From assembly GCA_019747905.1 (NCBI GenBank), contig JAIEQG010000007.1:17189-81188 (forward strand): a stretch of DNA of 64,000 bases, in the 5' to 3' direction. Below, piece after piece: positions 39,611-40,801 of this stretch. The position numbers and the translations under genes were made by a program. Within the stretch, counting starts at the first letter, position 1. Every line of letters starts with the position of its first letter. The notes beneath the pieces were generated by a model that worked only from the letters and a program-made list of their open reading frames with translations, did no database searches and was not told the origin of the DNA. This DNA comes from Burkholderiales bacterium (GTDB lineage: Bacteria; Pseudomonadota; Gammaproteobacteria; Burkholderiales; Ga0077523).

Positions 39611-40801
39611 TCAAGGATCCCGCGCGCAGCGAAACCCGATGTCCTCGGCGCGCAGTTCCGGGGCGCCATACGAACGCCGCGCCGAATTCATGCGCTCCGC
39701 CGGCTCGAAGCGGCCGCCGCCGCGAATCACTTTCGACGTACCCGAAGCGGGCCCTTGCGGATTGCGGCGCTCGCCCACCGGGAAACCCTCCGCGTACCAA
39801 TCCGCCGTCCACTCGGCGACGTTGCCGGCCATGTCGTGCGCGCCGTAGGGACTGCGTCCCGCAGGGTGGCTGCCCACCTTGTCGAGCCCGCCGGAATAGG
39901 CCTCGGGGGATGCGTTCTGGAAGTTCAGCCGGTCCGCCATCGGCCGGTCGTTGCCCCACGGAAACCGCCGCTCGTCCGTGCCACGCGCCGCCTTCTCCCA
40001 TTCCGACTCCGTGGGCAATCGTCGCCCTGCCCACTTGCAGTACGCACTGGCGTCGTTCCAGTCCACACCGCCCACGGGCAGCTCATCGCCGCGGGCGAGG
40101 TCCAATGCTTCCCATCCTTCCGGGGGATGAGACGAGCCCGTCGCCGCGAGAAACTTCGCATATCGCCCGGTCGTGACCTCCAGGCCGTCGATGTAGAACG
40201 CGTCGAGGAATACCTCGCGCTTCGGTGACTCCTCGTCGTCGCCCATGACGAAGGTGCCGGCCGGCACCAGCACGAGCGGCGCACCGTCCCTGCCGGTCAG
40301 TTCGGTCGGAGCCTCGCGGGTCGCGAGGGTCCACCACACACCTCCCGCCACGACGAGGGCGACGACGACTCCGACGCCTGCCTTGATCAGCAGCGCACGC
40401 CGGCGTTTCAGATCGATGCGATGCACGGCATCGGCCACCGCGGCAGCGATGTTGCCCGGGGACTCCAGCAGGGTCACCGACTTCACGAACGCCGGCAGAC
40501 GATCGAAGGCCGTCGGGCGCAGCAGCACGGGCAACAGCCTGCCGGAGGCCTGCCGCAGCTTCTTCTCGGCAATCTCGAGCTCGTTCAGCGTGTAGCTGCC
40601 CGGATCGATGGCCTCTTCGCTCACCAGGAAGACGAACAGGTCCGCCTGCTCGATCGCCCGGCGGATGCGGATGTGAAACTCCTCCCCTGCCGGCAGATCC
40701 TCGCGATCGAAGAAGACATCATGGCCCTGGTCGAGCAGGGCACGGTTGATGGCCTCGGCGATCGGGCGATCCTGCGAGGCATAACTCAGGAAGATCTTCA
40801 T
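39611..40801 (-). CDS. TIR domain - single TM helix - FGE-sulfatase (SUMF1-like) domain protein
   Basis: Start at ATG 40801 (ATGA overlap with the upstream gene). TIR: '[10 protein letters not shown]...[14 protein letters not shown]...[25 protein letters not shown]'. TM about aa 136-159, preceded by KRRR. FGE domain: '[32 protein letters not shown]...GNVAEWT...IRGGGRF'. Confidence 0.85.
   Translation of the reverse strand: [396 protein letters not shown]

Follow-up and report, generated by a model that had tools for sequence, protein, structure and literature searches.

Bacterial TIR defence proteins (Thoeris ThsB, TIR-STING, SPARTA TIR-APAZ, the single-gene TIRs of E. coli and AbTir/BtpA) share the TIR fold, an aromatic-xxx-Glu motif and a BB-loop Gly, and are organised modularly as a TIR domain plus a sensor module. 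They are soluble and sense nucleotides, nucleic acids or phage proteins in the cytoplasm; to our knowledge, the characterised bacterial TIR systems all respond to cytoplasmic events. Oligomerisation is generally needed for TIR catalysis. E. coli gains protection from phage through single-gene TIR systems, one of which contains a transmembrane (TM) segment, and TM and ectodomain features of the kind known from Toll-like receptors (TLRs) are seemingly absent from the bacterial TIR systems studied (PMC11350192).

The fold of the formylglycine-generating enzyme (FGE) is likewise encountered in conflict. Without the Cys pair of the enzyme, it binds macromolecules in the Tsi3 proteins, in the FGS domains of VMAP/iSTAND systems and in DGR targets (TvpA, Mtd-like). 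Tsi3 T6SS immunity proteins use the non-catalytic fold as a protein binder (bioRxiv 10.1101/2021.05.21.445229), and FGS domains have been predicted to be sensors or 'neutralising' domains in conflict systems (PMC7159879). The same FGE subfamily as in the protein described below, at 40-47% identity, follows the TM helix of Hanks-type Ser/Thr kinase-TM-FGE receptors (L064, L066, L075, L080, L085, L060). These receptors are single-pass N-in/C-out proteins whose cytoplasmic head is the output and whose FGE domain is the presumed sensor.

Here we describe a protein with the same predicted arrangement, in which the head is a TIR domain, pointing to NAD+ chemistry, and not a kinase. It is much shorter than the kinase receptors, and its TIR domain is joined to the TM helix directly by one helix. 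It also keeps the modular organisation of the bacterial TIR defence proteins but, in contrast to them, is predicted to be membrane-embedded with a periplasmic module. A literature search for this TIR-TM-FGE architecture found no paper describing such a protein. In our judgement, the chances are slightly better than even that it is a stand-alone, one-chain sensor-effector of N-in/C-out topology, with a cytoplasmic TIR domain and a periplasmic ligand-binding FGE fold, in which ligand binding leads to NAD+ cleavage.

Gene and domain layout

The gene lies on the minus strand of the window (the whole 64-kb stretch of DNA that was analysed), at 39611..40801, and encodes 396 amino acids counted from an ATG. 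The mechanically predicted open reading frame is longer (39611..40900) and extends to a GTG at 40900. We rejected this start, as the extension is unconserved and runs into the upstream gene. In the alignment, all homologues have MKIFLSYAS as their N-terminus, and the ATG overlaps with the TGA of the upstream 147-aa reading frame as ATGA. We therefore consider 40801 the true start. The following features were delineated.

40451..40801, minus strand: TIR domain, predicted cytoplasmic, aa 1-117, with the ATG at 40799..40801 (Pfam TIR_2, AF2, Foldseek)
40580..40594, minus strand: Y70-T-L-N-E74, corresponding to the W/YxxxE active-site motif of TIR NADases, with the codon of the candidate catalytic Glu74 at 40580..40582 (alignments)
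40397..40450, minus strand: juxtamembrane helix, aa 118-135, ending in K132-R133-R134-R135 (sequence, AF2)
40322..40396, minus strand: single transmembrane helix, aa 136-160 (Kyte-Doolittle)
40277..40321, minus strand: short linker, predicted periplasmic, aa 161-175 (family alignment columns 159-266)
39614..40276, minus strand: non-catalytic FGE-sulfatase (C-type-lectin-like) domain, predicted periplasmic, aa 176-396, followed by the stop codon at 39611..39613 (Pfam PF03781)
40037..40039, minus strand: Cys255 in the 'AYCKWAG' motif, half of a predicted structural disulfide (invariant; aligns with human FGE Cys218)
39698..39706, minus strand: E366-P367-A368, in place of the copper-binding Cys336/Cys341 of human FGE (HMMER alignment)
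39626..39628, minus strand: Cys392 in the 'GFRCA' motif, partner of Cys255 in the predicted disulfide (invariant; aligns with human FGE Cys365)

This layout of a TIR domain, one TM helix and an FGE-sulfatase domain had been proposed from the sequence in an initial annotation and is borne out by Pfam and hydropathy. The two motifs quoted there, of 19 and 28 residues, were both found in the protein, with Glu74 where it had been placed.

The TIR and FGE domains

The N-terminal domain matched TIR_2 (PF13676) over aa 3-97 with 75.4 bits against a cut-off of 28 (E 6.9e-21), a score above the gathering threshold that places it in the TIR domain superfamily. We ran AF2 on a 24-sequence family alignment and used the resulting model for the TIR domain and the TM helix, setting its FGE part aside. 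The TIR part reached a pLDDT of 80-90 and displayed a flavodoxin-like beta/alpha pattern. Foldseek matched it to the SPARTA TIR-APAZ (rmsd 2.6 over 137 columns) and to the TIR domain of SARM1 (TM-score 0.73 on the target).

Glu74 is invariant in all 24 aligned homologues, and the same holds for Tyr70. When the family profile was aligned to PDB sequences, Glu74 paired with the Glu of 'QWPARELD' in Brucella BtpA/TcpB, of 'NWTEYEL' in the bacterial TIR 7uxr and of 'EWSKFEM' in TIR-STING, which is the position of the catalytic Glu in TIR NADases. The N-terminal FxSY box and the BB-loop Gly39 are invariant across the family as well. Enzyme-type TIR domains are recognised by an alphaC-helix Glu four residues past an aromatic residue, here represented by Y70-xxx-E74; the aromatic is a Tyr where Trp is usual, which counts against an enzymatic reading. 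The invariance of Y70/E74, the FxSY box and Gly39, together with the alignment of Glu74, lets the domain pass as enzyme-type at the level of sequence. The earlier proposal of Glu74 as the candidate catalytic residue is thus upheld, and we predict that the TIR domain cleaves NAD+.

The C-terminal domain matched FGE-sulfatase (PF03781) over aa 176-394 with 177.9 bits against a cut-off of 23.3 (E 4e-52). The alignment spans positions 5-255 of the 255 in the model and makes the domain a member of this superfamily. True FGE structures were the best profile matches of aa 176-396 (E ~1e-44), and FGEs were also the top matches in Foldseek. Residues were assigned by aligning the profile with FGEs of known structure (2aft, 2afy and related entries).

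With FGE proper (SUMF1), aa 176-396 share one structural disulfide and the GN.xEW motif. The protein's only two Cys, C255 and C392, are both invariant, and exactly two Cys are present in 91 of 117 homologues. They align with Cys218 of the 'AYC' and Cys365 of the 'GFRC' motif in human FGE, which form a structural disulfide in that enzyme. In contrast to FGE, the second structural disulfide is missing, both catalytic Cys are gone and the active-site loop is three residues shorter. In the HMMER alignment, Glu366 and Ala368 occupy the places of human Cys336 and Cys341, and a three-residue deletion adjoins them. The domain thus lacks the two Cu(I)-binding active-site Cys by which FGE/SUMF1 is defined, and we rejected a true formylglycine-generating enzyme on the grounds of the lost pair and the shortened loop. 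Because the Cys pair is absent, a role in sulfatase maturation is excluded; there is also no sulfatase gene near the TIR-TM-FGE gene. The initial annotation had named a full set of FGE residues with a sulfatase partner as the case that would speak against its reading, and this case did not materialise.

The domain could still be an enzyme of another kind. Relatives are named 'SUMF1/EgtB/PvdO family nonheme iron enzyme' at NCBI, and the former active-site loop holds a conserved, family-specific charged motif, R-[FY]-[DE]-P-x-[DE]-R. Both would suit a membrane-anchored enzyme in the periplasm that belongs to the FGE superfamily but has a different chemistry, such as a PvdO-/NirV-like oxidoreductase, with the TIR domain as an accessory. 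However, the Cys pair is missing, the family alignment holds no invariant His triad, Pfam found no match to a DinB domain in the protein, and there are no conserved biosynthetic neighbours. The NCBIfam models for EgtB (84.5 bits, cut-off 360), SenA (87.9, cut-off 420), OvoA (18.5, cut-off 400) and PvdO (48.9, cut-off 500) scored between 18 and 88 bits against cut-offs of 360-500. We consider such an enzyme very unlikely.

Several specific assignments were likewise tried and rejected. An EgtB/OvoA/SenA sulfoxide synthase disagrees with the lack of DinB and with scores far under the cut-offs, and PvdO with its low score and the lack of pvd genes nearby. The PorK/GldK model for a T9SS lipoprotein gave 96.5 bits against a cut-off of 350 in NCBIfam, and the N-terminus is a TIR domain and not a lipobox. 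A DGR-diversified FGS/C-type-lectin target was rejected since the gene is unrepeated in the 64-kb window, where no DGR template copy was found, and its C-terminal region is conserved (omega about 0.08-0.2).

Because the Cys pair, the His triad and DinB are absent and the model scores are low, the domain appears non-catalytic, at least for FGE chemistry. The database names 'formylglycine-generating enzyme' and 'SUMF1/EgtB/PvdO family nonheme iron enzyme' are therefore misleading, as the catalytic residues of both are missing. Instead, we infer a candidate ligand-binding module, lectin-like or peptide-binding. In this respect it resembles Tsi3 and the FGS domains, with differences in organisation. 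Tsi3 proteins stand alone and are paired with an effector gene, whereas the FGS domains described by Kaur et al. are fused to vWA/STAND and often DGR-diversified. The domain studied here is conserved, with neither a DGR nor a vWA/MoxR/STAND partner.

Membrane topology and a proposed route of signalling

In the Kyte-Doolittle profile, hydropathy rises above 1.6 at aa 137-155 alone, where it peaks at 2.38, and the basic cluster K132-R133-R134-R135 lies immediately ahead of the TM helix. Across the family, a hydrophobic peak is found at the equivalent place (start at aa 132-144), and exactly one segment exceeds 1.6 in the hydropathy profiles of 110 of the 117 homologues. Lys and Arg are enriched in the 15 residues before the helix compared to the 15 residues after it (means 5.2 versus 1.7), with the excess on the N-terminal side in every one of the 117 homologues; acidic residues flanking the helix show the opposite bias.

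Relatives of the FGE domain outside of TIR proteins point in the same direction. Most of the nearest ones (40-50% identity, mainly in Nitrospira) are ~290 aa long and start with a hydrophobic signal at the N-terminus; in others, which are Hanks kinases, the FGE domain follows immediately after a TM helix. Caspase-FGE and trypsin-FGE proteins were also found. One TM helix, a positive-inside bias and an ectodomain of the exported type, as expected of a bitopic N-in/C-out protein, are thus all present. In addition, the invariant Cys pair matching a disulfide fits an oxidising compartment, and the TIR domain would need cytoplasmic NAD+. We treated charge bias, exported relatives, the one retained disulfide pair and the NAD+ requirement as four independent lines of evidence. 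On this basis a single-pass inner-membrane topology with the TIR domain inside and the FGE domain outside is well supported as a prediction. It agrees with the orientation given in the initial annotation, for which the charge bias in 117 of 117 homologues, the exported FGE relatives and the Cys pair are the main support.

In the AF2 model, aa 118-161 form an unbroken helix that leaves the TIR domain and crosses the membrane, which suggests a tight mechanical coupling of the TIR domain to the membrane. The KRRR sequence would act as a stop-transfer cluster within this helix. Past the helix, the linker of some homologues contains P/T/S/A-rich inserts of 30-40 residues.

We propose that a conserved periplasmic ligand would bind the FGE ectodomain and alter the oligomeric state of the ectodomains. 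The membrane-proximal TIR domains may then form head-to-tail assemblies that activate TIR catalysis. NAD+ would be hydrolysed, with growth arrest or abortive death as the outcome, or alternatively converted into a signal nucleotide. We infer the NADase activity, the activation by clustering and the role in envelope surveillance or defence from the features described above; the functional reading of the initial annotation, an envelope-facing sensor that drives a TIR enzyme, is reasonable on the same footing.

The layout recalls Toll-like and IL-1 receptors, which also combine a single membrane pass, an extracytoplasmic binding domain and a cytoplasmic TIR domain, and by this likeness a ligand-induced proximity of the TIR domains would be expected. 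The polarity is inverted, however. TLRs are type I proteins, while the protein described here begins with its TIR domain and ends in its ectodomain (type II). This ectodomain is FGE/C-type-lectin-like and not LRR or Ig, and the TIR domain keeps its catalytic Glu, whereas those of TLRs are scaffolds. The resemblance is one of layout, and a common descent of the whole architecture is unsupported. More tentatively, and with a probability that we put well below even, the protein could be a counterpart of TLR logic in one polypeptide, in which the periplasmic recognition of a pattern of envelope attack leads to TIR clustering and a collapse of NAD+ before, or without, invasion of the cytoplasm. Possible cues are components of an arriving phage, T6SS or bacteriocin toxins, and damage to the cell wall.

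If true, an envelope-wired TIR enzyme would extend TIR immunity and signalling to envelope surveillance. It would also provide a one-gene model of ligand-driven transmembrane clustering that activates TIR catalysis, a principle that also underlies the biology of TLRs and SARM1. As a compact, conserved family of small proteins (396 aa), it is practical for biochemistry and structure determination.

Family, selection and genomic context

A search of 5.8 billion proteins yielded more than 120 full-length homologues of ~396 aa with 60-90% identity and the same two Pfam domains. By their source names, they come from Betaproteobacteria, Burkholderiales, Casimicrobiaceae and Rhizobacter metagenome-assembled genomes (MAGs), and at 62% identity from Gemmatimonadales MAGs. 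Among the best 150 matches in 1.84 billion representatives clustered at 50% identity, only ~5-8 clusters were co-linear TIR-TM-FGE proteins, the remaining matches being FGE-only or multi-FGE proteins. The family thus is a compact clade (>50% identity).

A query with the TIR domain and TM helix alone gave 51 matches, mostly fragments, which were informative on alternative C-terminal modules. The same TIR clade occurs with other modules at this position, including a TM helix with an ectodomain of ~100 aa. Conversely, TM-FGE is joined to an unrelated TIR_2 domain in an Anaerolineales MAG (L069). Both the TIR and the FGE half thus act as interchangeable building blocks in a receptor-like architecture.

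Compared to the closest orthologue, L002, dN/dS was 0.09 for the TIR domain, 0.17 for the helix and linker and 0.08 for the FGE domain. Values of about 0.1 indicate purifying selection on both domains, and free variation is confined to the TM and linker regions. The reading frame is no chance match, given the more than 120 full-length homologues with both domains and the low dN/dS. Both domains are conserved and not hypervariable, in which the protein differs from typical phage-sensing modules. For the ectodomain, this points to a ligand that is itself conserved and away from a phage protein that evolves fast, and a conserved, possibly physiological cue fits equally.

These observations bear on the possibility that the protein has no immune function and is an envelope or stress protein, whose FGE domain monitors a self-derived cell-wall peptide, a metal or the redox state, while the TIR domain tunes NAD+ metabolism or acts as an interaction scaffold. 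Besides an omega of about 0.1 in both domains, an ectodomain that is not hypervariable and without link to a DGR, its use by Hanks kinases, which are ordinary signalling proteins, and the location in housekeeping regions in most contexts are consistent with such a role. The gene is, however, the fastest evolving in its local row, being 86% identical to L002 compared to 94-98% for its five neighbours, and its location varies between related genomes. Such a combination would suit an accessory or defence gene that is mobile, but does not prove one. The patchy distribution, including Gemmatimonadales at 62% identity, suggests horizontal transfer. Moreover, conflict or defence is the setting of every characterised bacterial TIR known to us with a retained catalytic Glu. 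We judge a physiological, non-immune role to be quite unlikely.

In the window and in the loci L001-L004, the gene is the last in a row of genes that run in the same direction, encoding a TPR-S protein, a patatin, RidA (or a two-component pair), a methyltransferase, the 147-aa membrane protein and the TIR-TM-FGE protein; beyond it lies a TRAP transporter in convergent orientation. The patatin is a CBASS-like lipase, and it and the TPR-S protein are encoded three to five genes upstream on the same strand. The protein also shows weak similarity to the TIR domains of ThsB and ThcB4 in PADLOC and NCBIfam. From both observations one may picture a ThsB-like TIR that produces a diffusible NAD+-derived messenger (a cADPR isomer or His-ADPR) for an effector encoded elsewhere, here perhaps the nearby patatin lipase.

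This arrangement is not retained in the family, however. The seven other contexts have neither patatin nor TPR-S within 6 kb or more around the gene, and no SIR2, SLOG or Macro ThsA-like gene was found next to any homologue. The matches to ThsB models are all partial and weak; the PADLOC models cover at most the first 65-100 residues of the protein. We consider a messenger-producing ThsB-like TIR unlikely, and rejected a Thoeris system of ThsB with an adjacent ThsA outright, as the neighbours lack ThsA and none of them is conserved across contexts. The contrast with Thoeris drawn in the initial annotation was correct in that no ThsA-like partner is found nearby.

Outside of the window's own lineage, the surroundings are housekeeping regions and not defence islands. 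The other contexts comprise catalase, arsenic-resistance/TIM/SecG/nuo, acetyl-CoA synthetase (acs), ABC transporter, PLD and further genes. Comparing all flanking open reading frames of 13 loci against each other, and searching with the five upstream neighbours by tblastn, we found no conserved partner across nine independent contexts. Generic ABC ATPases were the only recurrent neighbours; their distance and orientation varied, and we judged these matches to be due to chance. As no neighbour is common to the contexts, we regard the gene as a stand-alone unit, in line with the one-chain sensor-effector that we favour.

Scans for promoters and terminators around the operon gave nothing beyond the expectation from shuffled sequences. 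The only Rfam match was a tRNA at 18500..18589.

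TIR heads and rate of change

An independent fusion with the architecture of the window's TIR-TM-FGE protein is encoded in L069, an Anaerolineales MAG locus among those compared:

L069, 9335-10705: TIR_2-TM-FGE fusion, 456 aa

Its TIR domain carries a canonical WxxxE motif ('SEWVQSEL') and belongs to a different clade from the window TIR, so the TIR_2-TM-FGE architecture arose, or was put together, more than once. Among the proteins matched in the homologue search with the TIR and TM part alone, P0156 and P0165 join a TIR of the window's clade (41-43% identity) to a TM helix with an unrelated ~100-aa ectodomain, whereas P0150, P0152, P0160 and P0170 join one to soluble C-terminal modules. 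Judged from these arrangements, this clade looks like a modular family consisting of a TIR head plus a variable sensor.

Although its omega (dN/dS against the closest orthologue) is about 0.1, the TIR-TM-FGE gene changes faster than the genes beside it. Its protein shares 86% identity with the closest orthologue, in L002, compared with 94-98% for the five upstream neighbours (40798..45787). The gap is similar toward L001, another locus of the closest relatives, with 75% versus 80-85% for the upstream neighbours.

Upstream neighbours

40798..41241, minus strand: 147-aa protein with multiple hydrophobic segments
42092..42556, minus strand: RidA/YjgF-family protein, scoring over the TIGR00004 cut-off
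42586..45787, minus strand: pair of a TPR-S protein and a patatin lipase
43808..45787, minus strand: 659-aa three-region protein of this pair
42586..43773, minus strand: patatin lipase, directly following

The 147-aa protein, which has no family match and is 98% identical to its L002 counterpart, adjoins the TIR-TM-FGE gene in the closest relatives only; its stop codon overlaps the start of that gene (ATGA). The RidA/YjgF-family protein has a hydrophobic, signal-like N-terminal extension, which suggests that this Rid protein is exported. L001 has a response regulator/histidine kinase pair at this position instead.

The 659-aa protein begins with a weakly TIR-like region (PADLOC TIR effector, E 1e-6), followed by TPR-S and MAP3K_TRAF_bd repeats and an unassigned C-terminal region of ~190 aa. 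The patatin lipase is similar to CBASS CapV (105 bits, under the cut-off of 200). This pair, a candidate conflict system, matched no PADLOC system model and is kept in L001-L004, the loci of the closest relatives; in L001 an additional TIR_2-TPR gene sits between its two genes.

Hcp-fold proteins and tRNA gene

46666..47391 and 47388..48146, minus strand: two Hcp-fold proteins in tandem, orthologues matching PF05638 (T6SS_HCP)
18500..18589, minus strand: single tRNA gene (Rfam match)

Both Hcp-fold proteins start with a signal peptide and end in a tail of 'VPEPETW' followed by hydrophobic and basic stretches, which resembles the sorting signal of PEP-CTERM proteins. The two have the look of Hcp-like proteins that are exported, not of subunits of a T6SS tube. 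The tRNA gene is the sole Rfam match within the 64-kb window.
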